A stretch of 63,740 bases of DNA, the filler included, from Stramenopiles sp. TOSAG23-6 (Eukaryota): the NCBI GenBank assembly GCA_900128565.1. It is 12 parts of 12 records of this genome, joined end to end, with 100 filler letters (N's around TTAATTAATTAA, not from the genome) between each part and the next. Parts side by side here need not be neighbours in the genome. Positions count along the whole stretch, not along the records: positions 53,252 to 58,449 come from LT636956.1; 11 more parts are not named here. One strand, 5' to 3'. Below, in pieces: positions 346-60,699 of this stretch (position 1 is the stretch's first letter; every line of letters begins with the position of its first letter). A model generated the notes under the pieces. It did no database searches and was not told the DNA's origin. It saw only the letters and a program-made list of their open reading frames with translations. The translations under genes were made by a program, and so were the position numbers.

Positions 346-440
346 GTATGTTTTTTTTTTTCAAATTCGATTTTTTTTTCGTACGAAATTTTGTACCTAA
401 CGATTTTTTTTGTTGTGTGAAATATTTTTCTAAAATACAT
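346..440 (+). mobile_element. Introner-like insert (GT...AT); flanking exon phases do not match, possibly a chimeric join
   Basis: Full consensus GTATGT / TTCGTACGAAATTTTGTACCTAAC / TAAAATAC-AT. Confidence 0.8.
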
Positions 441-5156: not shown

Positions 5157-5249
5157 ATGTATTGTGAAAAAAAAAAAACACAATCGAAAAAAAATTGTTA
5201 GGTACAAAATTTCGTATGAAAAAAAAATAAATTTGAAATTCATAATGAA

Positions 5250-5349: not shown

Positions 5350-5380
5350 TTTCAAATTATAAAACATATTTTCTTCAAAN

Positions 5381-6097: not shown

Positions 6098-6233
6098 TAA
6101 ATATAGTATTCTTGTTACATATAACTTTCTTTTTTATATGATATGATATGACATAATAAAACACAGATAATAAAAATGAATCANAAAAAACGATTTTTTA
6201 AAAGTATTTTATTTTTGAGATGTAGAGAAATCT

Positions 6234-9167: not shown

Positions 9168-9480
9168 TTTACTCAATGAACTATTTCTCCTGGACCCATT
9201 TTTAGTTTAAAAGCTTTATAGTTGTATAAGTAACTACCTCACAGAAGTAGTTGTTATAAACGATATATAAGTGTAACTGTGATCAATACCAGGCCAGGGT
9301 CCGTTTTTTAGAGAGCGAGTTTTTTTGAATCGAACAAAAGTCGAAGGTGTATCCTTTGTATCCGCTTACTCTCTTCGGGATCTTTTGAGAGGAACGGTAC
9401 AAAGAAGCTTCTAATTGTTGATAAAGATTGGATTCCAAAAGAGCCATATCTTGCCAAGTATGGAAAAAATACATGTAAAA

Positions 9481-12859: not shown

Positions 12860-13320
12860 TAATAGTCACTATAGGTAGTTGTATACTACCATAATAGTAG
12901 TATCTTTTAAGATGTTATGTGTTGTGAAACATGAAATATTATAATTATTGTTAAAATGGAGATGTAATTTTTCACTTATATTGTAATAAAGAAAAAAAAA
13001 TATTAACATATAAAAATGGATAAATTTTTTTGTCGAAATTGAACAAATATATTCTTTTGAGTTAACGTTTGCCCTAACTAACCCTAACAAATCGAAATGA
13101 AAAAAATATTTATTGGTGAAAAACGAAATATTTAATATATAGCTTTCAAAACTTCATCAGTCAAAAATTTAACATTGATTTACAAACTCCACAACTAATT
13201 AGTATGTAGCTTTTTCCAAGATTCTACCTTTTTTTTTTAATTTTTTTAAGGGTGATTGCCAAACGTGAATTAGGGTTAGGGTTGTAGAGTGAGGTTTAAA
13301 ACAATTAATCTTGTTATAAC

Positions 13321-14013
13321 TTATTCTTTTTTATATTCTTTTTTAGGGTTACTATTTTTCTCCGTATTAATATTAAACCTATCTTGTTGCTGATGGCTTA
13401 TTGTTGATACAATGACTAGCCAAACAAAAGAAACACAAGCTACGACAGCAATTCTCAACTCTGGTGGAGTTACAGTGAAATTAAAAAAGTGTACAACTGG
13501 CCATATTTTAGCATAATTCAACATTGTTGGAACCACTTCTCCGAAATTAAATTGTCTTGTCTTGCTATCCCAACGACCATAAAATCGTCGCAAGCCTTGC
13601 ATTGGAGTACCACCAAATACCACAGTTTGTTGAAAGGCGTAATACAGTGGCAAGTATATAAGCGGAGTATGCACAAAAAGATCTGCTGCTACTTTTTGAA
13701 ATGCTACCTTCATAGTCTGGGCACTGCCAAATATTCTTGTGAATGCAACATTGTAAATAAAATGCTGCCCGCAACCGAGATATACCCCAGAAAAAAATGC
13801 AAATGCCAAATTCCGACGAAAAGAAAATACTTTTTCAGAAATATGCTTTTCGTGTACTGAAGTAAATCCCTTCAAGTTAAAGCCTTCGAATGTACGCTTT
13901 TCAACAGCAATCTGAGCAACTCCATCGGATAACGATCCCTTTATAAAACAAGTAGCAAATGCAGTAGATAGTACATATTTTTTACTTAACTGACGATACA
14001 AGCGAATCAGCAT
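13321..14013 (-). CDS. Mpv17/PMP22 family membrane protein
   Basis: SDGVAQ, KVAAD, IWPVVHFFNFTVTPPELR motifs. Confidence 0.9.
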   Translation of the reverse strand: MLIRLYRQLSKKYVLSTAFATCFIKGSLSDGVAQIAVEKRTFEGFNLKGFTSVHEKHISEKVFSFRRNLAFAFFSGVYLGCGQHFIYNVAFTRIFGSAQTMKVAFQKVAADLFVHTPLIYLPLYYAFQQTVVFGGTPMQGLRRFYGRWDSKTRQFNFGEVVPTMLNYAKIWPVVHFFNFTVTPPELRIAVVACVSFVWLVIVSTISHQQQDRFNINTEKNSNPKKEYKKE

Positions 14014-14541: not shown

Positions 14542-15858
14542 ATGATAAGAAAGCACATCAATATTATTTTCATCTTCATCACAATGCTACCAAAGATATT
14601 CGTGGAGGGTTTACCCGTTCATAAAAACAGTAGTAAGAAAAACATAGTTCAAAATGGCAACTTTTCAGCGGAACAATCTCGATACAAGTCAAAACGAGTA
14701 GAGAAAACATTGGAAAGCAAGTCACCAAAGCGTGGACTTTTCTATGAACTTTTAGACGGAGTTCAACAGTCTTTAGTACAAGATGGAATATCAGATACTC
14801 TAAATTCGTTGCTTCCCGCGGTTAAGCATAATGATGATAATGATGATAAACAACAAAAACAACAAAAAGACGGTGCAGTAAGATCTAATGAGGCAACAAA
14901 AAAACCTTTTAAGGAGACACACAGAGAGAAACAAGAGGTACATGACCCACTACTTGAAAGGAATCAAATTGTAGCTATTGAAGTTAAAGACTGTACGTTT
15001 TTGAAATTTTCATTTTTTTACTCAAAAAAATATTTTTCATAGTAAATTTTGTACCTAACGAATATTTTTTTACGGAAAAAAAAATACTTTTTCACATTTC
15101 TTTAAAAGTTAAATCTAAGTTGTTGAAAGAACATTTGAAGAAAATAGATGACTTAAGTATTCAGGATGAGGTTGATGAAGTAGATAAAAGTATTGATAAA
15201 TTATCTGCTACAATTATGGCCCAACAAGCTTCACAGATACATGAAATCCCAAAGCGATTAATTTTTACGTGTATGTTTTTTCATCCATTTTTTTTTTTTT
15301 TTTTGAAATTTCAAATTTATTTATTTTTAATTGAGGCTAGGGTTATACTAACGTTTTTGATTTTTTAAATATTTTTTCACAATGCATACAAATGGAACCT
15401 TTTTGAAAAAAACAAACCCAAAATTCTTGCTGATAATGCACGGAGAACAATTAAGCTTTATAAAGAGGAATGGAATTTACCCGACGCCCCAGTTGTGATA
15501 CTGACAGATGACGATTGCATTGATTTATTACGAGAAATTGAATCTCAACTTATTCCATTTTTTAAAAAAGAAACACAAGGAAAATACAAAGCCGATGTGT
15601 GCCGAGTCGCAGAGCTACTTAAAAATGGCGGTTATTATTTTGATGTTGACATAAAAGTTGTGAAGCCAGTCACTCTCCAGGTACGTTTTTTCTTGAATTT
15701 TTACATAATTTTTTTTTCGTAGAAAATTTCGTACCTAACAGCACACACATTAAAAAAATATTTTTTTTACTTTCTAGGATGGAATTCAATTTTCCACGGT
15801 TCTAGATGTCAATCGAACAGGAATTTTTCAGGCTTTCCTTGCATCTGTACCAAATCAT
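14542..15858 (+). CDS. Glycosyltransferase family 32 (DxD) protein, 3' truncated; introns 14993-15102, 15271-15387, 15681-15777, 15859-contig end
   Basis: Spliced product IPKRLIFTYKWNL...KADVCRVAELLKNGGYYFDVDI...FQAFLASVPNH. Confidence 0.85.
14993..15102 (+). mobile_element. Introner-like intron GT...TT
   Basis: GAC T|GTACGT...TTCACATTTC-TT|TA AAA restores the frame. Confidence 0.7.
15271..15387 (+). mobile_element. Introner-like intron GT...AT
   Basis: ACG T|GTATGT...CACAATGC-AT|AC AAA gives LIFTYK. Confidence 0.8.
15681..15777 (+). mobile_element. Introner-like intron with canonical GT...AG
   Basis: CAG|GTACGT...TTTCTAG|GAT; AG/AG flanks. Confidence 0.85.
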
Positions 15859-16881: not shown

Positions 16882-19800
16882 TTATTTTTTTATCGCAGGT
16901 AAATGTGTCAAAAGCGCATGTACAGCATCTAGAAGTGTGTCAATTTCTTCCTCTGTTACAGAGATATCAAAGTAATTGCTATCATCAGCCAAAAGAGGCT
17001 GTAAAACTGCATGTAAACCTAGGCAATGTTCTTCGTCGAAAAAGCAAGGGTTATTAATTGCAAAGTTACAAAGAGCTTTTGTTGCAATAGTAGATATTCC
17101 AATATCTTCCTCTAAAGCACTACTAAGAACTTCAAATAAACGACCAATAACATCTAATTTTTCCAGAGTACTATTACGTCGTTTGTTCGCATCGGCCGCA
17201 AAGTTGATCAGTACGCCACATGCATTGTATACAATTTCTCTATGGCAGTGATTAAGCAATATAATAAGCGCTTCATCCCCTCGTCTTTCAACAACAATAT
17301 CTCGAACACAGACAGACCTTGCATAATTAGCCAAAGCACGTAAACTTTCAGAGACAACTTCTTCATTTCCATGCACAAGCATAGTGACAAGTATTTCACA
17401 TATGCTTATTTTAGCTATTTCAATATCTTTGTTATGGGCATCACAGGTATAAAATGAAAGGTTTGTCACAGCACTTACAACATTTAATAGAAGTTCCTCA
17501 CTTGTATTTGAACACTTCAGAAGAGTAGCGAATACCATAGAAATATTGGAAGCCCCAATATATTGTGCTACCTCGGGATCAATGGATACGTTTGCAATGA
17601 GTCGGATTAATTTTATCAATACTTCCTGAACTGCTTCAGCATTGCAAGAATCTTCTTTTAATAAATTTAATCCACTCTCATTACTGTTGTTTATACTAAC
17701 TATTACTCTTTCAAAATTTTCTGTTTTACCTGTGTCAGGTCCATGTGTTTTTGACTGTATATTATTTTTACTTTTGTCAGATCCAGGTGTCTTTGACTCT
17801 ATACCATTTGCATTTTTACCTTCGCATATGTTTTGGGAGCTTTCAGCTGCTTTTCCAGTTTTCTTCAGTAAATAATTTTCATGGATTTGCCCATATCGAG
17901 TCAAGAGTGATTCAAATAATTTAATACCATTTAAATCAAATGCAATCAGTTGACGATTATCTACATTGGAAGCCGTCAAATTACCCAGAATAAAACAGAG
18001 TCGAATCACCAGTCCTGTATGATCTTGGTGAAGTTTCAAAACTTGAATTAATCCTGCGGCGGAAGTTTTTGCACTGTGATTTTGTCGTGTTTTTGAATTA
18101 TTTTCAAAGTTTACTTTTGTTGCATTTATTTGAGCACGACAAAATTTCTCCAAAGAAAGTTTACTTAGAATTCGCGAGACGTTAAACATGAGCTCTGAGT
18201 GAGTCGGAAAATACACACAAAGAGAGCAAAGGGATGTAACAGTTTTGTGTTCTGAAAATTGTTTAAAGTTTTTCTTTTTCATCGATAAATTTCGCAAAAT
18301 AGCGGTAATTTGAACTAAAATTTGGGCAACTTGTTGATGACTCAAATGTGCATTTGCTTCCTTTTTTATAGAGTGTATTATATTCATAAACGGCGTTAAT
18401 GTACCTATACAACCTCCTTTCTCTCCAAGCCAGAGGACGTTTTCCCGACATTGAGATACGTTTTTAATGATTGCAGCAATATATATCAAAACATCGAATG
18501 GCAGAAATATAACCATAGGTTTTTCAACACTTCGATTATTAGATTGATTGAATTTACTTTCTCGTCTTTTATTTACTCTATTGTCTTTTCTGTCTCGTAT
18601 ACTATATTTTTCCTCCTCCAACTTTGTATTTTGGCTTTCTCTTTTCATTCTATTACTCACATCCAGCAAACCTAAGAGAGATCCAAGCACACCTTCATCT
18701 AAGAAAGCTTTGTCAAATTTTTCTTCTTTACTAATTCGATACAACATTTTACAAGTACTGATAAGTGCACCTGTACATCCTCTTAAAGATCTTATAGTCT
18801 GAATACCATGTGTGCTTAATCTGAGAACAATTTTAGAAAGTCTCAATGTATTGTGAAAAAATATTTCAAATTTTTTTTTAAAATTTGTTAGGTACGAAAT
18901 TTCGTACGAAAAAAAAATTAAATTAGAAATTCATATAAAACGTACATAGAAGACATGGCTTATCTTTGTCAATGACACCGGCTACACATAAAAGAGTCGC
19001 TCTTCGAATAGCTCCCATATCATACATCTTATCATCTTGCAGGAGGGTTTGATCAATATTATCTGTGGTTTTACTCATACTTTGTATTCTAAAATTGTTT
19101 TCATCGGAAATATTGCACATAGTGTCTAGAACAACCCAAAGTCGGCTACAAATGGTACGCAATGCAACGGGTAAGTTATTTGTAGTAGTTAAACTGTTTT
19201 TTCCTTCGTATTTTTTTCTAGGACTAATGGAATTTGTACTGCGCGCGAGTCGGGGTAAATCTGATAGAAGACCTTTAAGCTCAGCGGAGTTTTTTTTCCA
19301 TTCATTTTCTAAATGTTTGAATTGTGCCGAGCTGTTTCTAATTTCATCTCTCTTAACAACTTTTTTATTTCTCATTTCGCTAGGAAATCGCTCTTCAATT
19401 CCTCGAGATAGAACATTCAATGGTTGGCGTGATATAGAGGTTTCACTACTTGGTGAAACTGAGCTAGGTACCATACAGGTATCGAAGTTGCTTTCAACGT
19501 CTTTTGCTGCCCAATTCCAGTCGTTCACTGGAGTATTTTTCGCATCTTTTCGAGAATCCTTCAGTTTTGATTCTCTTTCTCGTGACCGAGTATTTCGATT
19601 CATACGGATATCTTTTTCTGAAGGAACTAATTTTGATCCCCAAAGACCTTCACCACTTGCAATTCGAGCAAGGTCTGCACGAGGCGGCGTTCGCACAGGC
19701 GAGCTTTCACCCCTACTGCCAAAACCGTCAAAAAACCCACCAAAACTTGGATTAAAAGTAGAGGCTGGCCGGGAGGAAGGATGATAATCTCCTCCAAAGA

Positions 19801-20355: not shown

Positions 20356-21205
20356 ATGTCGTCGAAGTGTATGTAATCATATGATTTACCTTTACATCTT
20401 GTAGTCGATCTCTTTTATCTCTTATTTTTTTGTTTTTCACTATTTTACACGATCTCACTTAAAATCTAACTTAACGTCTTCTACCATTTCCCTTTATCTT
20501 ATTACACAACAGCTAGACCGAGCCATGACGTCAAATCGAAATCATCATCGTCCCACCAAAGTCGTGGACGAAGAGATCGATTGAAAGAGGCTCAGAATAT
20601 GGAAAAATCAGGTAAAATATTTGACGTAAGTTTGAATTCTCAACATATTGATTCCTCCTCGCTTTGTGTTTTCTGCCATTTAGCTCTACCGGCAAAACCG
20701 ACGTACTTTATTTTTTTTCTTTGATAGACCACTTATCAGTTCATCCTCTTTATACATATATTTCACCATACATGGACGCACCGTTAGTTACGCTGCTGAG
20801 AGAATAGTTGATAATGGGTCCTTCGGCGTAGTTTTTCAAGCCATAGTCGTCGAAACGGGACAAGTCGTGGCGATTAAAAAGGTATTACAGGACAAACGTT
20901 TTAAAAACAGAGAATTGCAGATTATGCGTCTTTTAGATCATCCAAATATCGTATCTCTAAAGCATTGCTTCTACTCTAATGGAGAGAAATCTGACGAACT
21001 TTATCTAAATCTTGTCTTAGAATATATACCCAAGACTGTATACAAAATATCCCGAAAATACCAAAAGATGAAAAAGCGAATACCAATTCTCGCCGTTAAA
21101 TTACACATGTACCAATTGTGTAGATCGCTCGCATACACCCATGCACTTGGCGTCTGCCATCGTGATGTGAAACCACAAAATTTGTTAGTAGACCCTTCGA
21201 ACCAT
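20356..21205 (+). CDS. GSK3: GSK3/shaggy-like kinase, 5' part; introns 20369-20512 (GT-AG), about 20626-20773 (ends AT; internal structure uncertain), 21206-contig end
   Basis: [50 protein letters not shown]. Confidence 0.92.
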
Positions 21206-28315: not shown

Positions 28316-28652
28316 ATCAGAAAGAGTTTGCATGTATAACTGGTATTTAAATACTTTTTATATTTTCAAAGAGAATATGCAAATATTGTCAATATTGAAT
28401 ATAATATGAAGTTTTTGTTACCAATAAAGCTAGGGTTAGGGTTTTTGTTTGCTACCTTTGCAATATGCATAAAATATTCAAAATATATAATATATATTCG
28501 TCGTTTTACAAGCGTTGAACAAAACAAAATTATCCTTTTGCAATTTCTATAGATTCTTCCACGTACAATACATGTGTCTGTACATGTAGTATCTATTCTT
28601 AGTGACCGCAGGCGTAGTGGTGTTGGAGTAGTGTTGACAAGGTTGAAAGAAT

Positions 28653-31126: not shown

Positions 31127-31852
31127 TTATAATTGAATTATTGTTGATGAAACCGTTAGATTGATAGGCGAGTGCTTGTAACAATACAAATCGTCATCAC
31201 TCCCGATGTTTTCTTCAACCGCTAGTAAATCACAGTCCCCACACGGTGATGTGAATTCACTTTCATTACTATAAATCATTGGGGTACTTATTTCTAAAAT
31301 ATTTTCATTATTATGATTCTTATGATTTGTATGATTATTTTCTTGATTTCCTAAATCTCTTTTTTTAACATCTGTTTGAGACATCTCTGACAAGGCAGAA
31401 TCCTCAACTTCATTTACAAAACCAGACGTTTTCACCTCAGAGTTACGCAAGTCAATCATATTTTGTATGAGTTCAAGAGCCCCAGGATTGTATTGCTGTA
31501 ATGTATGCCACTCACTTTGCTCCACTTCACGCATTACTCTATGTTGTGAAAAAATATTTTTTTCATTTTTTTGTTAGGTACAAAATTTCGTACGAAAAAA
31601 CAAAAATTCGAAATTGAAAAAAAATTGAAAAAAAAAACATACCTAGGTAAAGGTGTTCGTTTTACAGCGGTCGGGTGTCCAAGTTCCGAGAAAGCTAATG
31701 ATACATCTGATACCCATGAAAAACATTCGCCCCATCCTTTTTCTTTTTGCAATGAACATAAATGAACAGCTTCATGAAGCATCTGTTTACTGTTTGCTCC
31801 CCCACCTACAAAAATGACATATTTTGAAGCCACAAGTAGTGCTGCAGCTGCC
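31127..31852 (-). CDS. 3' exons of an unknown (possibly cyclin-like) protein; intron 31539-31642
   Basis: AAAALLVAS; junction PLPR-VMREVE in frame. Confidence 0.6.
31539..31642 (-). mobile_element. Introner-like intron with GT...AG
   Basis: AG|GTATGT...TTCACAACAT-AG; AG/AG flanks. Confidence 0.85.
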
Positions 31853-35540: not shown

Positions 35541-35630
35541 TCCCTTCGGCCGGAATCGAACCAGCGACCGCTCGGTATATGCTTGTTTAACTATTACAGC
35601 CGAGCGCTCTACCAACTGAGCTACAAAGGA
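35541..35630 (-). tRNA. tRNA-Tyr(GTA) with a 17-nt intron
   Basis: TCCTTTG-TAGCTCAGTTGGTAGAGC, stem CTCGG/CCGAG around CT-GTA-A, GGTTCGATTCC, downstream T-run. Confidence 0.95.
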
Positions 35631-39301: not shown

Positions 39302-39715
39302 TTAAGTTTCAGTTTTCATCGAATCGCCAAAGACTTTCAAATTTTCACTTTTTTTTTCACCATTGTTGTCAATCTTGTTTTCAATCTTGTTGTCAATCTT
39401 GTTTTCTTGAATGTCATCAGCAGAAAAATACAACTCAGCACAACGACCATTAAAGATTGGGTCTGTATTTTGGAAAATATTTCAAAAAAAAAATTGAAAA
39501 TTTGTTAGGTACAAAATTTCGTACGAAAAAAAAATTCAAGTTTTCAAAAAAATAAAATAAAAGATACCCGGTAAATTCTTCCAGCCACTTACGCCACCTA
39601 ATGCAATCGTTTCGTCTTCAGTCATTAAAGCATCATTGAGTTTTCTATGTATATTTTCTTTATCCAACAAAACACCAATAAAAACAATCTCATTCAATCG
39701 ATCTCCCCATGTCTC
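39302..39715 (-). CDS. CobW/COG0523 GTPase, C-terminal exons; intron 39463-39567 (GT...AG)
   Basis: WGDRLNEIVFIG...LNDALMTEDE...WKNLPDPIF. Confidence 0.8.
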
Positions 39716-39824
39716 ATGTATTTTAAAAAAATATTTCAAAAAATAAATTTGAAAATTTGTTAGGTACAAAATTTCGTACGAAAAAAAAAATCGATTTTTT
39801 TGTAAAAAAAAAAATAAAACGTAC

Positions 39825-40811
39825 ATTTACCCGCTTCAACTTCAAGTATCCAACCAGCAACGTTATCCAAAAAATATCGGTCATGAGTAATTGCCACAAC
39901 AGTGCCTTTATATGTATGTAAGTATTGTTCCAACCAAGCGACGGAACGTTCATCTAAGTGATTTGTCGGCTCATCTAACAGACAGTATTGTGAAAAAATA
40001 TTTGTTTTTTGGTTTACAAAAATTCGTTAGGTACAAATTTTGGTACGAAAAAAAAATAAAAGTCAATTTTGAAAACCTACAGCATTTCTGGTCGTTCTAG
40101 TAACAAACGGGCCAGAGCTACGCGACGCTTTTCTCCTCCAGAGAGGTTTGCAGGTTTCGCATCATCTGGTGGACAGTTTAGTGCATTCATGACAAGATCG
40201 ACATCGTGTTTCATATTCCAACAATCTAAATCATCAATCCGAGACTGTAAGCTACCTTGCTCTTCAAGTAATTTATCAAAGTCAGCTTCTGGGTCACACA
40301 TGGCTTCGTTACAGGCGTCATATTTAGCCAAAAGATCGGTTTGTTCTTTGATACCATCCATTACGTTTTCGAGACAGCTTTTATCCTCATCTAATATAGG
40401 CTCCTGTTCGAGATATCCAATCTTCAAGTCTTTTTTACGCCAGACTGTACCATCATAATCTTTATCCGTTCCAGCAATGATTCGAAGGAGAGAAGATTTA
40501 CCAGCACCATTTGGTCCTAAAATTCCAATTTTTGCACCATGGAAGAAGGATAAATTCGCCTTATCAAAAATGACTCGACCTCCTGGAAGAACCTTTCGAA
40601 CATCAGTGATTGACGCAGAAAAGACACCCGGTGTACCACCCCCCTGGTTAGACGGTGTAGATTGACCTTTCCCAGTTTTTTTTTTTTTACGCTTTGAAGC
40701 AAAGGAACGAGTACTGTATTTACCTGGTGTATATTGTTGGACAGAATTCTTGATGTATTTATTGGGCTGTATACGTCGTACTACACGTAAGCATGTAGAG
40801 AAATGCCACAT
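39825..40811 (-). CDS. ettA: ABC-F translation factor, EttA-like, N-terminal half; intron 39983-40080
   Basis: [62 protein letters not shown]. Confidence 0.9.
39983..40080 (-). mobile_element. Introner-like intron GT...TG, within the Walker B motif
   Basis: ATG CT|GTAGGT...CACAATAC-TG|T CTG TTA GAT GAG. Confidence 0.85.
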
Positions 40812-41069: not shown

Positions 41070-41985
41070 ATGACTGTCAAATTTGAAGCAGTAAATGCAG
41101 TCGAAAGAGTCTGGAACTCAGGAACGAGAGATGATAGCGATGTATTTACTACCCTTAAGAAAATTGGATTTACCAAACTAGAAATTATGAAAGCTCTTAT
41201 TGAAGCTCGCCGTAGAAAGTTTGTAGTTGATTCGTCAGATGAAGATCCATCAGATAGCAGTATTGACGATTCACTTGATAGTGAAGAAATAATTATACGT
41301 AAAGCAATTGCAACTGGCTTGCCTTTGTTATCCGAGTTGCGCTGTAAAGGTGTTTCTCCCCTGATGTATTCTGCTTCAACATGTAATGAAAAATTAGGTC
41401 TTCGAGTTTTAGAAACAGCTCTTCGACAAATCCCTCAAGGATATCCTGACCCCAATGGTGGCGATTTGGCTGATTTTGGGTATACTCCACTTCATTATGC
41501 TTGTCAGCATGGTATGAGTGAGTTGACTTCTGCTCTGTTAAGGGCAAATGCAAACGTGTATTGCGTTACTTTTGATATTCGGCTACAACTTACCATTGTT
41601 CAAAGTGGTGGAAAGACACCACTTCATCTTGCTGCCAAGGGATTCCATTATAATATATGTTCATCACTTCTTCATTATGCTAACGCTAACCCTAAATTAG
41701 AGAATGACATTCAGTATACTCCAACTTTGTTACATACAAAATTTGCTACAAATGTTGATTCTAATAGAACTTCATTATTAACAATGACAGATATTGATGG
41801 AAATACACCATATGTATTAGTATTAATGTCAATCGCACAAAAGTGTTCAACATACTCTCAAAATTATGAAATGTTTGAATCATATAAAGCTGAAGTTTCA
41901 TCACTTTTGAATCTTTTACAACATCCCTTCAAAAAGTTGCCGAAATATATTATAAAAATGAGTGATACATTGAAACATTCACCTT
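41070..41985 (+). CDS. Ankyrin repeat protein, first exon
   Basis: GYTPLHYAC; GKTPLHLAA; DGNTP. Confidence 0.85.
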
Positions 41986-42084
41986 GTATGTTTTATTTTT
42001 TTTTTTACAAAAAAATCGAGTTTTTTTTTTCGTACGAAATTTTGTACCTAACATTTTTTTAATAAATATTTTTTCACAGTACAT

Positions 42085-42485
42085 GAATGGTCTGCTAATG
42101 CGGAACGCGAACAGCGAAATGCCAAGAAGAAATTAGTTTTATCTCACAATGAAGAATTAAAACATGTCACGGAAAACCAAGAGATGAAATATAAATCCAT
42201 CATAGAAGACATCAAATCAAGAAATGTAAAAGATATGTACGTTTTAAAAAAGTGAATTTCAAGTTTTTTTTTCATACGAAATTTCATACCTAACAAATAT
42301 TTTAATTTTTTTGAAATATTTTTCACTCACACATTGAAAAGTTAGAATTGGAGATGGAAGAATGGAAGGCAATGTATGATAAAACTGTTGATGAACATTC
42401 AATTAAAATACGTGAATTGAATAGATCTAATACGGCATTAATTGCTCAAATTAAAGAAGGTCATGAAAAAGGGTTTCATAAGCAT
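42085..42485 (+). CDS. Coiled-coil protein exons; intron 42237-42334 (GT...AT)
   Basis: Junction VKDI-EKLELE in frame; the join to the ankyrin exon breaks the family phase rule. Confidence 0.6.
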
Positions 42486-42637: not shown

Positions 42638-45600
42638 TTTCAAATTATAAAACATATTTTCTTCAAANGCATGCTCGATCGGAACGAATGAAACAAATCA
42701 ATAAGGCAATAAAAGAGCAAAGAAAAGCCATGATTAGGGAGGAGAATATGTACGTCTTTATTGTGAATTTTTTATCTAAATGTTTTTTAAAAACATTTTG
42801 TACCTAACGAGTTTCGAATTTAATTTTTTTTCACAATACATCCGTCGTGATAAATGGAAAAATAATTTAACATTAGAAAGGGACATCACACCTGGTCCAG
42901 GAAAATATTCTTTGCCCGATCTTACTACACAAGTAGCAGGTGGGACTTGGTCTCGAACCGCAGTAAAGAGTGAATTTGAAGAAATTGAATATCGAGGTAG
43001 AAATATTCCTGGTCCTGGCCATTATGGAATGTTAAAGTCATGTATTGAACCAAAAGGGGGAATTATTGCTAGAAGATGTCCAGGTCAATTGGATATCATG
43101 TTAAAACGAGCAGCTGAGACACCAGGTCCTGGTCAGTATCAGCCAAGAGAGATTGAAAGTAATAANCCTCAAGCTTTTGCTAAATTTAAAACTCCAGGAA
43201 TGTTAGATCAAGCCATTAGAAACTCAAGAGATGTCCCCGGNCCAGGAATGTACCAAACTTCGGATATGCCAACAGCAAAAGCAAAGGAAGTNTTACGAAT
43301 GAAAGCAGCAACTAGACAAATAGTACAATCTGCTTTAAAGAAAAATGGTAGGGGACGTCGGCGTCCTAGTACTGCCGCTTATTAGTAAATATAGTATTCT
43401 TGTTACATATAACTTTCTTTTTTATATGATATGATATGACATAATAAAACACAGATAATAAAAATGAATCANAAAAAACGATTTTTTAAAAGTATTTTAT
43501 TTTTGAGATGTAGAGAAATCTTCAAACTTGGACTTTAGGGTTAGTATCATCATTATTTACTTCTTTGGAAGGTGTTACCGCCGCTACCTTCTTTGCATCA
43601 TTCAACATTTTTGCAATTCTCTCTTCTGATGTTAAGCGCGAGATTTCTATCGTTTCAGGTTTCATTTTCCTTCGATATTGTAATCTTTTTTCAATCCGTT
43701 TTGGAATGCTATTTTCATCGATACAATGCTTCATATTGATTATATTACCTCTGCGTTGTGCTGCTGAAAACAATCTTGACATATGCGCTTGCATCATTGT
43801 TATTCGTTGTTTATTTGCCTTATGAGAAGATCGAGCGCGAGTTCCAGGTCGCGAACCTTTTTTAGTGAATGAAGCTTGGTCAAGAGGAGACCACCCACGG
43901 AGAGTGATTTCTACATCCAATTTCGGCCACCTTTGTTCGAATTGAGGGAGAGGATCAAGCATATCTTTTGTTGGAAGAATTGCTAACGTCTGCTTCTTNG
44001 TGACAGCTATGCGCGTTTCAGACACGCGGCGTATTGGTTCTGTAACTATGTTGTGCCACTCTTTATCAGCAGCATCTTGACCGCGTTGTTTAAATATACG
44101 ATCATATCTTTGTTCTGCCGTTGAAACTTTCATTGCTGAAACTGCCATTAGTGCTGCTATTTTATTACCATGACCAGCTGTATAAGATGCTCGTACTGCA
44201 TCTCTTTGTTTCGGTTGCATTTTNGTAGAATTCTTACTATATCTTTTCATAATTGGATCTATTTTAGCCATATAAGCATCAATTTCTTTATCACCTATAA
44301 TATTTGTTTTTGGTCTCCAAATAATACCGTCTAGTTCATTTGCGAGTTTTTGTAGTGCTTCTTTCTTTTCTGCTTTTAATTTTAATTGTTCTTCGTTTTT
44401 TTCTGCATCTGNTATTCCCAAAGATTTTGACGCCTTTTGGTCCCATGCTTCTTGTGCTGCATTAGCCAATTCGCTTAGTTTTAGTGTAGCTATACCCATT
44501 TTTAGTCCTTTTTTTCCTTGCGGTTGCATTAATCGGAATTCGAAAGTAATATTTTCAAGTCGAGATTTCAACTTATTACTATAGACAACAAAGGATTCAT
44601 TCCAAAGAATGTTGTTATTGATATCTNTCAAATTAGTCATTGGAGATATCCTTGTTTTATGCTCGATTTTTTTGTGGCCTAATAATACTGTATGAATATA
44701 CGGCGAACTAAATGGATTTGTTGTCTCTGTTTCTGGGTTTTGATCATGACCATACAAATTTGACGCTGATCTGATTTTTATCCATAATTCAAATCCTTTT
44801 TCACTCGGTGTTGTCCCATCGAATAGTCGCTCACGGCTTAACCCTTCCCGGTGTTTCATTCGGTCATAGTATGACATTCCTCTTCGCTCAGCTTCAATTT
44901 TATATTTTGGTTTATCCTCAACTGACATCCTAAGACAGTTCTGTCGCGCACGCTTTCGGTTTAACTTTAATATATGTAAGTGTCCCCTCCTGTATTCATC
45001 TACTTTTCTAAGACGTAACTTTTTAGCTCTTACTAATGCAAATGCTTGGTCTTCTTGGAAACGCAAGTCANACACTGTTTTTTCCATTTTCTCATGTTTT
45101 TCTTTTTCCATGTTTAACTCTGCTTCCAACTTTTTATACCGTTTAAAAATTTTATCTTTCAAATGAACTTTTTTATCCAAGTGTACATTTTCAGACTTAA
45201 GTTCTTCNAGTATATGTTCGAGTATTCCAATGTCATCATGGTAGTCTATCTTCTTTTGTCTTAGTTCCATCTCTTCCTGATTTAATTTCTTAATTTCTTC
45301 TGCAGTTGCTAGATATCCTTCTTGTTGCGTATTAAATCGTAATTTACTTTTCAACATTCTTTTTTCAGCTATTGTTGTGTTTTTCTCTTCTTTAATTCTT
45401 GTTTGAACAGATAAATCAAGTTTCTCCTTGAGTCTCTTCAACTCAGTATCCAAGGCNAAAGAGTCAGCAAGCATTTTTTGTTTNGTTTTTTCATCCTCGA
45501 GACCTACTTTCTCGGCTCGCCGTACAGTAGATGAAAATGGCACTTTTTTTCCATTTTCATTTGTGTAAATATATGAATCCAATGTTTGCTGCAATACTTT

Positions 45601-47848
45601 CCTAAATAGTTCTTGACTATTTTTTTCATTCGGTGATAAGTATTGTGAAAAAATATTTTTTTTAGTAAAAAAATCGTTAGGTACAACATTTCGTATGAAA
45701 ACAAAATTTGAAATGGTTAAAAAAAANTCAATTTTGAAAACGTACAAACAGTTTTCTATATAATAACTTAAAAAGTCGAAACATGCTAGAGTTCGTGCTA
45801 TAGCTTCGTTCTCGCTCGACAAATCATTTTCATATGTTTTGCAGTATTCAATGGTGTCTCCGAGTGAAGTTGTCTCTGATAATAAAGACGATTTCAAAGA
45901 ACATTTGACTATGCCTTCTTTTTTTCTTCGTTCTGAACGTAAAGTTTTAGTACCAATATANGGAAAGTCNTTATAATTATTTTCTAAAACATCTGAAGAA
46001 ATATTTAGATTTTGTGAATGAGGTTCCTTTAAAGGTATCTTTAAAGGTATCTTTAAAGGTATCTTTAAATCTTGAAACCTTGATTTCAAAAATGTGTGAA
46101 ATGTTTTTAATAAATCTTCATCTGGTGGAAGATACTGCCATACAGGTACTTCATCTTCTCTTGGACGCTGATTATTTACNGCATTTGATGTATTCGAAGG
46201 AAGTGAACGATTCAAAAATGATTTCCCCCATTCCAAACGTTTTTCTAGTGTATTTAAAACAGGTTCTCGAAGTTTTGGCTTCACTGGAAGTGAATGTCCA
46301 AGAGCTTGGCGAACTACAAAAGCAGCTGGAGCTGAATTAGTAGAAGTATTGTCTGTTTTTTTGCGAGATGCACTTCTACGAGCAGCAGATTTTGTAGCGT
46401 CTGAATCGATCAGATTTCCTGATGATTCTGTGCGTATACTTGGTAGGCGAAGCATTTTACTCAATGAACTATTTCTCCTGGACCCATTTTTAGTTTAAAA
46501 GCTTTATAGTTGTATAAGTAACTACCTCACAGAAGTAGTTGTTATAAACGATATATAAGTGTAACTGTGATCAATACCAGGCCAGGGTCCGTTTTTTAGA
46601 GAGCGAGTTTTTTTGAATCGAACAAAAGTCGAAGGTGTATCCTTTGTATCCGCTTACTCTCTTCGGGATCTTTTGAGAGGAACGGTACAAAGAAGCTTCT
46701 AATTGTTGATAAAGATTGGATTCCAAAAGAGCCATATCTTGCCAAGTATGGAAAAAATACATGTAAAAATGCCTAAAATGCCTCTGGTCAAGAAGAATCC
46801 TCATAGCNATCTTCTACGCTCAAGCCTTTTTCTCGCAATTCTTGGAGTCTTTGCNGTCACTTTGACTTTTCACTCATTCTCTCCGAGTACGGCCGATAGC
46901 TCTTCAGCTGGTCTTCGTCGGCTTGAATCCACTACAGAACTTACTTCGGGTGTTACTCTCACTACGGAAGTTACTTCGGATGTTGCCGCTTCAGTCGTAA
47001 GGCAGACTGACTCAGACTTTGCATGTCCTTCGGGGTCATCGGTCGCTCTCGATGTTACACTCACTTCAACGTCGACCGTTTCACAGAAAAAATTGCAGAA
47101 TTGTTCCTCTATAATAAGCCTGACAATAACATCAAGCACACTTACCAAAATTGACAAGAAAGCGTTTAAAAATTGCTCGAATTTGGAAAGCGTTGATTTA
47201 TCTGGATGCACTTCNCTTAAAAAGATTAAAAAAAAGGCATTTAAAGGTTGCGGTAAGCTTAGCGACTTTCAATTCCCTGGATCTCTTACAGGAGTATCAA
47301 AGTATGCTTTTGACGATACTTGTTTTGAAGGCGAGGACGACACAGCTAAATTAAATGACGCCGTATTTGTTGATTGCCAAGAATACGTTGCGACTGTGAC
47401 TCCGGCACCAACACCTGCACCAACTGCAGCGCCAACACCTGCACCAACTGCAGCGCCAACACCAGCACCAACTGCAGCGCCAACTGCAGCACCAACATCA
47501 ATAACTTGCGACAAGGGCGAGTATGCAGAAAATGGTGAGTGTAATGAGTGTGGTGCTGGTAAGTACTCATCTTCATCTGGTGCAAGCAAATGCACAGATT
47601 GTCCAGCGGGAGCGTACAGCGACGAAGGTGCAAGTGAGTGTGATCTTTGTCCGGCAGGAACGGCAAACATCTCGACTGGTGGCCATGCAAGTGATTGTGA
47701 AGAATGTGCTATAGGAAAATACAGTAGTTCAGCTGGAGCTTCTGTCTGTACTGATTGTTCTACTGTGACAACAACAGGCGCTACTTCCTGTCCTTGCGAC
47801 ATGGGCGAGTATGCAAGTAGTAATGGTGAATGTAACAAGTGTAATGCT
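42638..47848. repeat. Redundant copy of the contig starting at 5350 (offset 37288)
   Basis: Same sequence, including the positions of single N bases. Confidence 0.97.
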
Positions 47849-48002: not shown

Positions 48003-48802
48003 GGGATACCGAATATTCGGAAATGTTGAATAGAAACATGAGATGGCAAGATCGTGCTAAATTTAATGTGTCCAAAAAAATGATTCAACGAAAGCTACAA
48101 GAACGCTCTGGTGATTATCTATCAAATGATCAAAATCCTAACCCTAATAGATCTGATGATGGAAAAAATAGGAAGGAAATAAGTCCTTCAATTAAAAAAA
48201 ACAATATTGCCGATGAACTCAAGAAACGCACTGATAGGTTTGATAGTAACCTTGTACAGCCGCGGTGTAAACATTGTGGTCAATCGTGTACGTTTTCATC
48301 ATGAATTTCGAGTTTTTTTTTCGTACGAAATTTTGTACCTAACAAAAAAAACAATTTCATCCAAGTTTCGTAACAAACCTGACGAATATCAAATTGTAAA
48401 CATATTTTTCACAGTGCATTATTTCTTCCTGAAATGGTGCGATCAGGCACATCTGGAATGCAATGGCTCTTTCAGCAAAAGCCTATTATGAACCAATGTC
48501 CAAATAGTTTTTGTAAAAAGGCATTACCACGATGTTCTGTTTGTTTGCTCAGTATGGGCTCTATCAACCCAACTGTTGCCATCACTGCTTCTGGTAAGAA
48601 TCGAAAAGGAATAAACACAAACATAGATTCAGATGTTTCAATGCCAAGGCTTAATTTTGGAGATTGGTGGACTTGGTGCCAAAGTTGCGGACATGGTGGC
48701 CATGCTGGGCATCTTGCTTCGTGGTTCGATAGTCATGTAACTTGTCCTGTGAGTGATTGTGGTTGCAATTGCTTATTGCGGGATTATAGANCTTTACGGT
48801 GA
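48003..48802 (+). CDS. MIOS: GATOR2 subunit MIOS/Sea4-like, C-terminus; intron 48288-48419 (GT...AT)
   Basis: WQDRAKFNV; CKHCGQSL; CKKALPRCSVCL; WWTWCQSCGHGGHAGHLASWF...CPVSDCGCNC. Confidence 0.9.
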
Positions 48803-53499: not shown

Positions 53500-53600
53500 A
53501 TGTATTTTGGAAAAATATTTCAAAAAAAAAAAATTAAATTTGTTAGGTACAAAATTTTTATAAAAAAATAAATTCGAATTTGAAAAACAATAAAACATAC

Positions 53601-54549
53601 ATTATCATCGAATTTGTCAAAAGGGTATTTGTTACTATTCGCAACACATTTAGTGTGAAAAATATTATTTTTTTTTTGGTTTGTTACAAAAAATAGTTAG
53701 GTACGAAATTTTCTATGAAATTTTTTTTTGAAATGATGAAAACGTACACATACTAGGCTTATTATTGAATTCCTCCTCACTAACGCTAGTATCATCTAAA
53801 ACATCATCATTATTATTACAATTATCATCATCAGCATACCATTGGCTGTATTTACTATCTTTCTTTAGAAGTAGACGCAACTGATCAAACTCATTTTGCT
53901 GTAGTTTAGGACGCGCAAAATTTGGATTTTCCTTACATAAATCAACTTTTAGTGTAACACTTGAGGTATCATCACGAAATTCAAAGGCAACCTCCAGTTT
54001 TTTTGTTGTCATTTGCCTTTTTGCTTTTCCATTAGCCTTATATGGCCCCATGAGAATATGTTGGTCCACATTATACAAAAACAAGGGGGTTCCAAGTTTA
54101 ATTGCACTCCCACCCATTGCCCAAAAGTAGTTATCCCCTATAAAAACGTCATCTTTAAAGAATTTTTTTTCTGATTCATTATTACAAATAAACAAAAACC
54201 CCAAACAACTATTACTGTACTTTGGTTTAAATTCATATGATGGGACAGTATGCTGCGCTATACTTCTTTTTGTTGTTTCTTTTGTCTCATGTACAGAAGC
54301 TTCTTGTACATCTCGGGTTTGCTGTAATTCGGACGTCGTTTTCTTCTTTTTCGTCGTCTTGAGGGGAATTTTTATCAGCTTTTTCTTTGATATAACCACA
54401 GTATTATCCGGTTCTTCATTTCCTGACGTATCCTCATTATAGTCAACCTCTTCACTATCTTCAGAAATATTTCCTACGTTGCTGTCTGCAACAGAAAACT
54501 TTTCAAAGTCTTTTGCTACACCGCTTGTATCTGGTAAAAGTATATCCAT
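53601..54549 (-). CDS. DCD-domain protein, 5' exons; intron 53648-53747 (GT...AT)
   Basis: GFLFICNNES...IKLGTPLFLYN...LMGPYKA. Confidence 0.7.
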
Positions 54550-57452: not shown

Positions 57453-58385
57453 TTACACAAGAAACCCGAAGCTTTTTCGCAATGAAAGCCTAAGAAAAGA
57501 ATTCAAATTATAGTCTACTGGGTGATCAAATTTTGATAAAGTTGACACTTCCTGATCAAATATTGATGACAATTTTTGATCATTTTTTCTGACTCCACAA
57601 ATACTCAATTTACAATTTGGAGCAAGACTTTTCAAAGCCTTTTCATACTCTTTATCANAGTTTATGTTAGGCACAGCGCGGAAGGAATAATCAGAGGTAA
57701 CACAGACCCTAAATAGTAAAAAAATATTTAAAATTTTGTTTTGTTAGGTACGAAAATTTCGTATAAAAGAAAATTTAAAAAAAAAAAAAAATTCGAAATT
57801 CATCATGAAAACATATATACCCGAATGTAGACATCCAGTCTTTGTTTTTGCGAATATTTTTTGATTGAGCATTGCACTAGCAATAAATAATTGATACAAA
57901 GTTGTAGGTGGAGGTCTTATAGGCGGAATTAATGCTTGTATTCGTGATTCATTTTTATCAATATCAGATTTTTTTTCTATAGAGAATTGATTAGCTATAC
58001 AATTACCACACATATGTATCGTGAAAAACATTATAAATTTGAAATTGGTCAAACGTTTTGTTAAGAAATAGCGGATCAATAATGAAATGTATACGAAATT
58101 TCAGTAGTCAAAACGTACATCATAGTCACACAAAGAACAACGGTGAACTGGTGTACGTATTGTGAAAAAATATTTTTTTTCTGTAAAATTCGTTAGGTAC
58201 AAAATTTCGTACGAAAAAAAACTAAATTCAAAATTGAAAAAAAAAATAAAACATCTTGTGAAAAAATATTTTTTTTCTGTAAAATTCGTTAGGTACAAAA
58301 TTTTTATAAAAAAAAAAACTAAATTCAAAATTGAAAAAAAAAATAAAACATACACCTGGACGACACAATTTTTTACATTTATCAC
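57453..58385 (-). CDS. ZZ-type zinc finger protein, 3' exons; introns 58155-58353, 58014-58118, about 57709-57816
   Basis: Spliced CDKCKKLCRPG|TPVHRCSLCDYD|MCGNC. Confidence 0.75.
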
Positions 58386-58549
58386 AAGTATTGTAAAAAA
58401 ATATTTTTTTTTTTTTTTCGTAAAAAAAAACAATTCGTTAGGTATGAAANNNNNNNNNNNNNNNNNNNNNNNNNNNNNNNNNNNNNNNNNNNNTTAATTA
58501 ATTAANNNNNNNNNNNNNNNNNNNNNNNNNNNNNNNNNNNNNNNNNNNN

Positions 58550-59314
58550 AAGGTTGTACAAAATCTGCAAGAGGGAGGACAAAATTTTGTGTTGGACATG
58601 GAGGAATACGTTGAATTTAATTTTTTTTTTCATAGGAAATTTTGTACCTAACGATTTTTTTTACAAAAAAAAAATAGTATTGTACAAAAAAAAATTTATT
58701 TGTTTTTTTTCATAGGAAATTTTGTACCTAACGATTTAAAAAAAAAAAATATATTATTGTACAAAATATGGCAAACGATGTTCCATTCAAGGTTGTAGTA
58801 AATCAGCTAGAGGAGCTACACCTTTTTGCTGCTCGCATGGAGGTGGTCGCCGTTGCCAAATAGTTGGATGTAAAAAATCAGCACAAGGCTGTACAAACTA
58901 CTGTGTTGCTCATGTAAATTATATATTTTTTTTGATTTCCATTTGCCTACCATTGATTGTATACTCAGTTTCACACAGGTTTTCGTGTTTTTCTTCTCAA
59001 ATGTTTCATACAAAAATGTATGCCTAACAAATATAGACATATCTATTAACATTTTGTTTTTACTCTACATGGTGGTGGACGGCGATGCAATTATCCACGT
59101 TGTGCCAAAAGTTGTCATGTACGTTTTTGTAATTATATTCATTTGCTCTTTTTTTATTTTATAATTGAATTTCATTTTTTTATTGTATCAAACTCTTGAA
59201 AAATATTATTGTAGAATTTAGGATAGCACAACATTCTGTCGATTGCATGGACGACAATTGTATTTCAAGTATATGGAACTTAATAATAAGAAAGTACATA
59301 CGATTTCTGGCTAA
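58550..59314 (+). CDS. WRKY19-like zinc finger repeat protein, 3' part; introns 58606-58769, 58914-59070, 59119-59221
   Basis: GCxKSARGxTxFCxxHGGGxRC repeats restored across three inserts. Confidence 0.85.
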
Positions 59315-59749: not shown

Positions 59750-60085
59750 TTAGTTGGAAGAAAATTTGGTAACAGCTTTAGTACCTTCAGAGACAGCGTG
59801 TTTAGCGAGCTCTCCTGGGAGTACAAGGCGGATAGCAGTCTGGACTTCTCGGGAAGACAAGGTTGCTTTCTTGTTGTATCGTGCGAGGCGGCCAGCTTCC
59901 ATGCATACGCGTTCGAAGACGTCATTGATGAAGGAGTTCATGATGGACATTCCTCTCTTGGAGATACCGGTTTCAGGGTGAACTTGTTTGAGTACCTTGT
60001 AGATATAGATGGAGTATGTCTCGACACGGCGCTTGCGGCGGGTGGAGGTTCCAGATTTTTTTCCTTTGCGTGAAGTTTTAGCCAT
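59750..60085 (-). CDS. H2B: Histone H2B
   Basis: [16 protein letters not shown]...[20 protein letters not shown]. Confidence 0.99.
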
Positions 60086-60318
60086 TTTGATTGATTAAAA
60101 GTTTGTTCTAATTTGTTTATGAGGTTTGTGATTGATTTCGAAAAAAAGTGAAGTGGCAGGTTTGTGGTGTGCTGGGAGCACCAATCGAGGCGAACTTTTC
60201 AAATATCGAGTTTCACTCAAGTGGCTTCGACAAACCTGTTTCATCACGTTTGCGCGCCGTTCGAACTTTCTATCACAACAAAACATTTACTTTTTTAAAA
60301 ACTAAATAATACTTTAAA

Positions 60319-60699
60319 ATGGCAGGAAAAGGAAAAGGAGGACGCGGAGGAAAAAACAAGGGAAAATCCACATCCCGATCTGCAAAGGCTGGACTTCAGT
60401 TCCCAGTTGGACGTGTTGCTCGTTATATGAGAAACATGAAAGTTGCATCTCGTCTCGGCGGTGGCGCTCCAGTCTACATGGCTGCTGTCCTCGAATATCT
60501 CGCTGCTGAGATTCTCGAGCTTGCAGGAAACGCTGCTCGTGACAACAAACGATCCCGCATCATCCCACGTCACCTTCAGCTTGCAATCCGCAATGACGAA
60601 GAGCTCAACAAACTCCTCGGTAATGTTACCATTGCTGCTGGTGGTGTTCTTCCAAACATCCACGCTGTCCTTCTCCCAAAAAAGAAAGGCCGCAAGTAA
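60319..60699 (+). CDS. H2A: Histone H2A
   Basis: [14 protein letters not shown]...[15 protein letters not shown]. Confidence 0.99.

Follow-up and report, generated by a model that had tools for sequence, protein, structure and literature searches.

Element-derived introns with probable non-AG 3' ends and a two-base direct repeat in contigs of Stramenopiles sp. TOSAG23-6

A repeated intron-like element in the window

The 63,740-base stretch of Stramenopiles sp. TOSAG23-6 DNA analysed here, referred to below as the window, is a series of contigs taken from the fragmentary assembly of a marine eukaryote, and its genes are interrupted by copies of one short intron-like element, most of which appear to end in a dinucleotide other than AG. 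The window comprises 12 pieces of 5.19-5.25 kb that are sorted by falling length and separated by spacers of N44-TTAATTAATTAA-N44. Its GC content is 29-42%, and its gene content, as determined with Pfam, is eukaryotic. The repeated sequence is an introner family, that is, a short mobile intron-like element repeated at unrelated genic sites. The original prediction held that a transposon-like insertion duplicates 2 bp and that splicing removes the element plus one copy. The analysis described below showed that the copies belong to one repeated element lying in coding sequence in sense orientation, and that removal of the element plus exactly two bases restores the reading frame and, where it can be tested, a conserved protein.

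Copies share a layout in which the exon is followed by GTAYGTTTT..CGTACGAAATTTYGTACCTAAC..TTTTTCACAATAC+NN and then by the next exon. When all GTAYGT and all TACCTAAC motifs were listed, the fuller form between the two exons was GTAYGTTTT(CAT..)...TTTTTTTCGTACGAAATTTYGTACCTAAC(R)A...(A-rich)...(G)AAATATTTTTTCACAATAC+NN. The length of complete copies is 92-132 nt; they are AT-rich and non-coding, and all of those seen lie inside genes in sense orientation. The element's own splice signals are conserved in the alignment and consist of a 5' site, GTAYGT, and a branch-point box, TACCTAAC, which lies inside the core CGTACGAAATTTYGTACCTAAC. The distance from the branch box to the 3' end is 33-49 nt in most copies, AG is nearly missing in between, and the 3' part of the element is a T-rich tail ending in ...TTTTTCACAATAC. 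The family 5' dinucleotide was GT in 22 of the 22 complete copies tabulated. Two further introns start, or may start, with AT (58606 and ~57821). The latter, at ~57709-57821 on the minus strand, is a family intron that apparently starts with ATATGT and ends with AG, with an alternative GT reading 4 nt upstream. The A1/C-1 covariation of AT-AC introns is not present in these two A-starting introns.

The family is abundant in the window. Cores of TACCTAAC with conserved flanks numbered 34, and an nhmmer search with a profile of 19 copies returned ~37 matches at E<0.01 (E down to 6e-17), duplicates and tandem units counted. This corresponds to ~33 distinct family loci in ~58 kb of non-duplicate sequence, or approximately one per 1.7 kb. 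A metagenome scan with a 16-base core pattern found element flanks on none of at least 117 loci, and these loci are therefore random matches. A 22-base family pattern gave 0 matches in genome contigs and 0 in viral contigs.

Hallmarks of a DNA transposon were looked for in the same copies. No terminal inverted repeat of ~10 bp or more, the criterion for a miniature inverted-repeat transposable element (MITE), was found; the two ends have in common only GTAY...RTAC, a stretch of 4 nt that grows to 6 when the flanking AT is counted. Individual copies, 5462 for example, have a 9-bp subterminal pairing. None of the five copies folded gave a stable fold or an end-to-end helix (z -0.4 to -1.7 in five of five), and a Pfam search of the window detected no transposase domain.

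Reading frames and the 3' ends of the introns

Intron boundaries were placed in a single register, with the intron starting at GTAYGT and stopping two bases after the conserved ...AATAC, and were tested by whether the longest flanking open frames agreed. Removal of the element plus 2 nt kept the frame in 18 of the 22 complete copies. Open frames set the 3' end only modulo 3, and exact placement was obtained from homology or internal repeats in five introns (40080, 58118, 58606, 58914 and 59119). Among the 18 frame-consistent copies, the intron ended in AT in 10, AG in 4, TT in 2, GT in 1 and TG in 1, such that 14 of 18 were non-AG. These results suggest that the family very probably consists of element-derived introns with non-AG 3' ends. 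The presence of non-AG acceptors on otherwise canonical introns is both a more surprising and a better supported point than the origin of the two terminal bases, which is considered in the next section.

The intron at 40080 (39983-40080, minus strand, 98 nt, GTAGGT...CACAATACTG) interrupts a gene for an EttA-type ABC-F protein and is the one whose removed length is best pinned. Exon 1 aligns to E. coli EttA through M183, and exon 2 aligns in whole codons from L185 (chains 9nlb_E/4fin_A). A single residue is thus left for the split codon, CT plus T, which encodes Leu (Leu184 in EttA), and the removed segment is exactly 98 nt. The exon ends in CT and the intron in TG, a pair written below as CT/TG, with the last two exon bases before the last two intron bases.

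A second protein-level test was provided by a gene on the plus strand of contig 12 (58550-59300). Splicing at 58606-58769, 58914-59070 and 59119-59221 gave a strict 25-residue period, GCTKSARGRTKFCVGHGGGKRCSIQ, GCSKSARGATPFCCSHGGGRRCQIV, GCKKSAQGCTNYCVAHGGGRRCNYP and RCAKSCHDSTTFCRLHG, with the Cys/His consensus GC.KSA.G.T.FC..HGGG.RC. The three introns interrupt the repeat at differing points, with HGG joined to GKRC at 58606 and KSCH joined to DSTTFC at 59119. These repeats may resemble those of plant 'WRKY19-like' and stramenopile proteins. The intron termini are AT..AT at 58606, GT..AT at 58914 and GT..AG at 59119. The first of these introns (164 nt) starts with ATACGT, with A at +1, follows an exon ending in GA, and is made up of two tandem family units. 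The second (157 nt, GTAAAT...CTCTACAT, AT/AT) is old and degenerate, with an nhmmer match at 58979-59069, and the third (103 nt, GTACGT...AATTTAG, AT/AG) has the family 5' end. The frames in 18 of 22 copies, together with the protein restored at 40080, 58606, 58914 and 59119, uphold the earlier claim that insertion is seamless at sites whose acceptor need not be AG.

The minus strand of the same contig carries the intron at 58353 (58155-58353, 199 nt, GTATGT...CACAATACGT, GT/GT), which consists of two tandem partial family units (nhmmer matches at 58353-58256 and 58252-58157). The upstream exon ends in ...CCAGGT, with its GT at 58355-58354, the intron ends in GT at 58156-58155, and the next exon starts with ACACCAGTT (ACACC at the junction). 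The intron at 58118 (58014-58118, minus strand, 105 nt, GTACGT...CACGATACAT, AT/AT) is followed by a first downstream AG that shifts the frame. After splicing, the 58353 gene reads CDKCKKLCRPG, TPVHRCSLCDYD and MCGNCIANQF in succession, with the pattern C-x2-C...C-x2-C-DYD-x-C-x2-C, presumably a ZZ-type zinc finger. In this region (58014-58449, minus strand), ~105 nt of coding sequence for one zinc-finger domain hold three family introns, which leave exons of 33 and 36 nt; the local density of insertions is thus very high. The tandem units in 58353-58155 and 58606-58769 were considered as nested insertions; this was rejected, as they are internal tandem duplications with truncated ends, and they are uninformative about a duplication of the target.

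We considered whether the non-AG ends had been mis-called from open frames in AT-rich sequence, with ordinary AG acceptors lying somewhat downstream or upstream. In 3 of 15 non-AG introns, the first AG beyond the branch box is compatible with the frame, namely at 8457 (+21), 14993 (+6) and 48288 (-54), and the acceptors of these three are ambiguous. In the other 12 of 15, the first AG shifts the frame, and those 12 therefore need a non-AG end. At 40080, use of the first downstream AG would run the frame into a stop and cost the protein LLLD of its Walker B region, and at 58914 and 58606 the use of an AG would break the strict 25-residue period. Ordinary AG acceptors are accordingly a very unlikely explanation of the family as a whole.

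An equally improbable placement moves both boundaries 2 nt upstream, which would turn the family into AT...AC introns (ATGTAYGT...AATAC) of a U12-like or AT-AC kind, with the variable dinucleotide at the 5' end. AT-AC termini define a known intron class, the matched AT/AT copies can be written as AT...AC, and for every matched pair the resulting mRNA is identical. The core ACCTAAC also faintly resembles the U12 branch box, TCCTTAAC. However, the shifted boundaries would give Cys in place of the conserved Leu184 in EttA and HGDG in place of HGGG at 58606. The shifted reading thus fails where it is testable at the protein level, and the fixed boundary is the 5' one. U12 introns have a 5' ATATCC/GTATCC box and the TCCTTAAC branch box 10-26 nt from the 3' end, whereas the 5' sequence here is textbook U2-type GTAYGT, not ATATCC, and most copies have their branch box 33-49 nt before the 3' end. 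Neither the 5' box, nor the branch distance, nor the protein at mismatched copies fits U12-type or U2-type AT-AC introns.

The four copies that were frame-inconsistent in the family register were 346 (346-440, plus strand, AT/AT), 39824 (39716-39824, minus strand), 41986 (41986-42084, plus strand) and 53600 (53500-53600, minus strand), and they were left out of the main count. They account for four of the five copies with the closest similarity to other copies, and none of the remaining 17 is inconsistent (hypergeometric p ~0.0007, worked by hand). The young copy at 39824 has an EttA exon upstream and the last third of a CobW_C domain downstream (profile positions 67-94 of 94), and no remaining part of EttA was found in the 2 kb downstream; 346 is likewise a young copy. 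At these four, contigs have probably been joined wrongly across young copies that are nearly identical. Alternatively, young copies may be spliced differently: an intron end at ...AATAC would put three of the four in frame.

Contig structure also bears on whether the whole pattern might have been created by an assembly that is fragmentary and partly chimeric. Eleven of the 24 contig ends lie inside an intron-element copy (at 5249, 10690, 15926, 21258, 26684, 31904, 37324, 42537, 47949, 53252 and 58449), which indicates that the assembly breaks at the element family. One contig is present twice, as 5350-10589 and 42638-47848 are the same sequence with identical single-N positions at an offset of 37,288; element copies on it were therefore counted once. 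The copy that joins EttA to CobW_C, and the concentration of frame inconsistency in four of the five most similar copies, point the same way. Against an artefact, each of the 18 counted copies keeps the frame between long open frames, and their sequences differ (best pairwise identities 54/69 to 93/104), as expected of separate loci. In addition, a share of 0.23-0.42 of one contig's sampled words was present in independent seawater DNA runs, a word share that serves as a pointer only and not as a sign of habitat or expression; the runs listed for parts of this contig comprise seawater DNA, poly-A metatranscriptomes and two small runs of a coded organism. An assembly artefact is the least probable of the explanations considered, and we think it can hardly account for the family.

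Word-index searches were performed with three exons. The zinc-finger exon, which was searched together with longer proteins, and the DCD-domain exon matched no spliced protein of the same organism. The EttA exon gave 8000 homologues, with 79-85% identity among the matches listed on top, none from this organism.

Ordinary GT-AG introns coexist with the family in the window. A kinase gene, which we take to be GSK3-like from its motifs, has a first intron at 20369-20512 (plus strand) that looks canonical (GTATGT...CACAACAG) and has no family core. Its second intron, at ~20627-20774 (plus strand), may represent an old copy of the family (GTAAGT...CACCATACAT) after an exon ending in AC. A 433-codon open frame at 2552-3850 (minus strand) is an orphan gene with a family intron on either side. 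A full HMMER search returned 0 relatives of its 433-residue product among 1.84 billion representative proteins, and Pfam has no family there; an identity as an HGGG hydrolase was dropped for the latter reason. The junction at 3927 has two candidate products, PEF joined to GGGFF and PEF joined to HGGGFF, and the HMMER search gave no protein by which to choose between them.

Pfam further identified sperm-tail PG-rich repeats and a tubulin-tyrosine-ligase family protein, ankyrin, armadillo, EF-hand and MYND domains, and the EttA-type ABC-F protein described above. A divergent H2B (minus strand) and H2A (plus strand) gene pair without introns lies at 59753-60696. The sole RNA gene detected in the window by an Rfam search was a 90-nt tRNA-Leu(TAA) at 35541-35630 (minus strand); the same search found no small nuclear RNA (snRNA) in the window. 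Short telomere-like TTAGGG/CCCTAA runs (e.g. TTAGGGTTAGGG) occur within contigs at ~13280-13350 (plus strand), 28420-28440 (minus strand), 41690-41710 (minus strand) and 15345-15360 (plus strand), close to gene ends and in one case within a copy of the intron. Candidate explanations are interstitial telomeric repeats and promoter motifs of the telo-box type.

A two-base direct repeat at the exon and intron ends

The original prediction proposed that the acceptor dinucleotide copies the last two exon bases. Exon and intron ends were compared with shuffled pairs for the copies in the window, a sample that is small (18 copies in the main count) and whose acceptors were placed by frames and homology. 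The two terminal intron bases matched the last two exon bases in 10 of 18 copies, against 4.77 expected from 20,000 pair shuffles (p=0.0016). Position -1 matched in 16 copies (11.7 expected, p=0.013) and position -2 in 11 (7.6 expected, p=0.020). No signal was found in these 18 copies at positions -3 to -6, or between intron +1..+6 and next-exon +1..+6. When all 22 copies were included, 13 matched (7.2 expected, p=0.0006), and when the two AG/AG pairs were left out, 8 of 16 matched (4.9 expected, p=0.025). Among 65 pairs of 5' and 3' registers, p<0.01 was obtained only in the register of the original prediction. These results indicated that the repeat is real and, in this register, at most two bases in length. 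We rejected a 3-bp duplication (ATG), as just 6 of 18 copies are followed by an exon starting with G, a frequency not above that of shuffled pairs.

All ten of the matches that had been listed hold. Six are AT/AT: 58118 and 58914, described above, and 2621 (2507-2621, minus strand, 115 nt), 5462 (5462-5553, plus strand, 92 nt, with a duplicate at 42750-42841), 18945 (18846-18945, minus strand, 100 nt, between open frames of 342 and 653 codons) and 42237 (42237-42334, plus strand, 98 nt). Two are AG/AG: 15681 (15681-15777, plus strand, 97 nt) and 31642 (31539-31642, minus strand, 104 nt). The remaining two are GT/GT at 58353 and TT/TT at 8457 (8350-8457, minus strand, 108 nt, the same intron being at 45638-45745 in the duplicate contig). 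The non-AT matches, GT/GT, TT/TT and twice AG/AG, are direct, not inverted.

Nine of the ten listed mismatches also hold, the acceptor at 56273 being the one that could not be placed. Four are synonymous, with exon -2 in third codon position: 14993 (14993-15102, plus strand, 110 nt, CT/TT), 15271 (15271-15387, plus strand, 117 nt, GT/AT), 39567 (39463-39567, minus strand, 105 nt, GTATCT...ACAG, GG/AG) and 48288 (48288-48419, plus strand, 132 nt, GT/AT). The non-synonymous ones are 3927 (3830-3927, minus strand, 98 nt, GTGTGT...ACAT, TT/AT, between open frames of 202 and 426 codons), 53747 (53648-53747, minus strand, 100 nt, GT/AT, between open frames of 292 and 41 codons), 63477 (AA/AT), and the introns at 40080 and 59119. 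Target bias towards NT, and AT in particular, was as had been proposed: exons ended in NT in 23 of 27 cases and in AT in 14 of 27, and introns ended in AT in 18 of 28. The proposal that a canonical AG arises mainly when the target was AG did not hold, as this was so in two of the four AG-ended copies (15681 and 31642) and not in the others (GG at 39567, AT at 59119).

A 2-bp duplication at insertion is the likeliest but unproven source of the repeat, and we give it about an even chance. In this mechanism, the element brings its own 5' splice site (GTAYGTTTT), branch box (TACCTAAC) and T-rich tail (...TTTTTCACAATAC). The spliceosome, judging from signals, frames and homology, would remove everything from GTAYGT through two bases past ...AATAC. 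The two terminal bases, which are mostly AT and also AG, TT, GT or TG, do not belong to the element consensus as the rest does. They would stem from a target-site duplication, produced when a staggered cut of 2 bp is filled in during insertion, at targets strongly biased towards AT and NT. If the element is then spliced out with one copy of the duplication, the mRNA would be unchanged, the 3' splice site being co-opted from the duplication. Because the duplicated bases are rarely AG, the host spliceosome would have to accept non-AG 3' ends, and the 3' cut would probably be placed from the branch point and the T-rich-CAC tail, not from an AG. The intron -2 base might later drift, or be selected, towards A, which would explain many of the mismatches at -2 only.

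Several observations weigh against a duplication. AT is the commonest exon end, the commonest intron end and its own reverse complement, and AT/AT, which makes up six of the ten matches, therefore does not discriminate. Three origins account for it equally well: a duplication, a 6-bp inverted repeat (ATGTAY...RTACAT), or an AT encoded by an element that prefers AT targets. AG/AG, two of the ten, is the ordinary consensus of an exon ending in AG followed by GT...AG. A passage of Gozashti et al. (PMC9860276) states that matches holding across introns cannot show duplication and that only locus-specific ones can. With AT/AT and AG/AG uninformative, the locus-specific support comes from GT/GT at 58353 and TT/TT at 8457, and the latter has an in-frame AG 21 nt downstream. 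The transposon-like 2-bp duplication of the original prediction is a plausible reading with precedent; the match behind it exceeds chance but depends on few informative pairs.

The mismatches weigh in the same direction. Eight of the 18 pairs are mismatched, six at -2 only and one (59119) at -1 only, and neutral decay of a 2-bp duplication does not predict such a single-position pattern. Either the intron -2 base has been pushed towards A, or the A is encoded by the element and the last base alone is repeated. The best-pinned intron, at 40080, is a full mismatch, and 39567, which is among the copies most similar to others, is already GG/AG. Both the acceptor and the duplication are, moreover, features that we infer. 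As noted above, the copies have no clear terminal inverted repeat beyond GTAY...RTAC and no stable fold, and the window has no transposase. All copies are genic and sense, so that they give no sign yet of DNA-level insertion in two orientations.

Many of these points would be accommodated if there were no 2-bp duplication and the element's own 3' end, ...AATACA(T) or ...AATACAT, supplied the dinucleotide, with insertion preferring AT or NT and leaving a 1-bp repeat or none. We consider this possible, if rather doubtful. An element encoding AT could spread by reverse splicing of the excised intron into other mRNAs or by site-preferring insertion, and GT/GT and TT/TT would then be later mutations or chance. 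Given the frequencies of AT at intron ends (18 of 28) and exon ends (14 of 27), most matches follow from biased marginals. Position -1 matches in 16 of 18 copies and -2 in only 11 of 18, and intron -2 is A in 14 of 18. AT ends stand on three of the four GT targets (15271, 48288 and 53747), as well as on a TT target (3927), and the GG/AG copy at 39567 is young. The lack of clear inverted repeats and of a transposase, and the sense, genic copies, recall the RNA-propagated fungal introner-like elements described in a portion of PMC9860276. On the other side, the pairing exceeds shuffles at -2 and, as a dinucleotide, even without the AG/AG pairs, with the p-values given above. The sole GT end stands on a GT target, and one of the two TT ends on a TT target. 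Furthermore, in all four matched non-AT targets (58353, 8457, 15681 and 31642) the bases are at first or second codon positions, and this is the best single argument for a true duplication.

Codon position was less informative for the mismatches. The earlier claim that these often fall at silent positions was supported in so far as exon -2 falls on the third base of a codon in 5 of the 8 copies with a mismatch, compared with 1 of the 10 with a match (Fisher p=0.043). This enrichment supports only the statement that the exon once had A, or that constraint hides change elsewhere, and both a duplication and an element-encoded AT predict it. Silent drift in the exon is a doubtful explanation. Of the five phase-1 mismatches, four have G as the exon base (ACG, CCG, TCG and ATG). 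The synonymous ones are the three NCG codons and GAC, and ATG is non-synonymous. NCG codons are normally rare in an AT-rich genome. They are therefore odd as products of drift, and a GT or GG target is the simpler reading.

With regard to how the 3' end is chosen, we tentatively suggest that the spliceosome might read no AG at these introns. It would instead measure from the branch box and the T-rich ...CACAATAC tail and cut two bases further on, whatever those bases are. We regard this as a possible account, of rather low probability.

Relation to known introns and implications

In the general introner mechanism that Huff, Zilberman and Roy reportedly set out in 2016, the element is spliced out together with one copy of a short repeat. 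According to passages of PMC9860276, a family in Chrysochromulina sp. supplies its own 5' site, makes a 4-bp duplication, has no inverted repeats and co-opts its 3' site from the duplication. The window family resembles the Chrysochromulina introners described there in its many similar short introns at unrelated genic sites, its element-supplied 5' site, the mRNA that splicing would leave unchanged and the lack of clear inverted repeats. It differs in its repeat, which is 4 bp in Chrysochromulina and 2 bp at most here, mostly AT, with the duplication unproven. Because the repeat here is short and mostly AT, the co-opted 3' end would be non-AG in 14 of 18 copies, whereas canonical introner families keep GY-AG. 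Fungal introner-like elements are described in part of the same source as having no duplication, no inverted repeats, canonical GT-AG ends and a strong gene bias. Their gene bias and missing inverted repeats fit the window family, whereas its non-AG ends and its repeat at -1/-2 do not.

Other lineages have introns that depart from GT-AG in different ways. In Amoebophrya A25 and A120, most introns are non-GT-AG, with direct repeats of 3-5 nt and inverted repeats of 8-20 nt, as described in sections of Farhat et al. 2021 (PMC7789003). As in the window, these are repeated intron families of a marine protist in which short direct repeats over the exon/intron borders blur the exact border; unlike in the window, the same sections describe a hairpin that joins the ends and no clear dinucleotide at either end. 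The window family has a strict GTAYGT and branch box and no predicted end-to-end hairpin; only its 3' dinucleotide varies, and its repeat signal is 2 nt.

In the animal Fritillaria borealis, most introns escape GT-AG, with AG-AC or AG-AT termini linked to transposon-like insertions (Henriet et al. 2019, as summarised in a passage of PMC11282704), and an excerpt of PMC13326754 reports duplicated, divergent U2AF paralogues that bind the non-canonical 3' ends. Going by these passages, a spliceosome tolerant of non-AG 3' ends would be common to both cases; the 5' end is non-canonical in Fritillaria and canonical here, where the window holds no splicing factors. The nonconventional introns of euglenids, in the account given in part of PMC11282704, are without GT, branch box and pyrimidine tract and rely on pairing of their ends. 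They share with the window family non-canonical borders, duplication-like junction repeats and a suspected mobile-element origin, but the window family has all spliceosomal signals except AG.

The literature searched yielded no introner family that combines a GTAYGT 5' end with 3' ends that are AT or variable, and the supplementary family tables of PMC9860276 and PMC12130899, which may list one, lay outside that search. The introner scheme itself is known; what sets the present family apart is the combination of a strict canonical 5' site and branch box with a 3' dinucleotide that alone is free and a very short repeat.

These introns bear on two open questions, the birth of introns and the choice of the 3' splice site. 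In most known introners the GT-AG ends are retained, with one site carried by the element and the other borrowed from an AG-containing duplication. For this organism, gene models based on the GT-AG rule will be wrong at most introns, and short-read contigs break, and are sometimes mis-joined, at these elements. If the present reading is true, recognition of AG would be dispensable on its own, with the 5' end unchanged, unlike in Fritillaria or Amoebophrya, and the family would offer a simple natural system for asking what sets the 3' cut. If indeed no AG is read, any insertion with a 2-bp duplication would be excised seamlessly, and this would have allowed the element to colonise coding sequence at approximately the density observed here.

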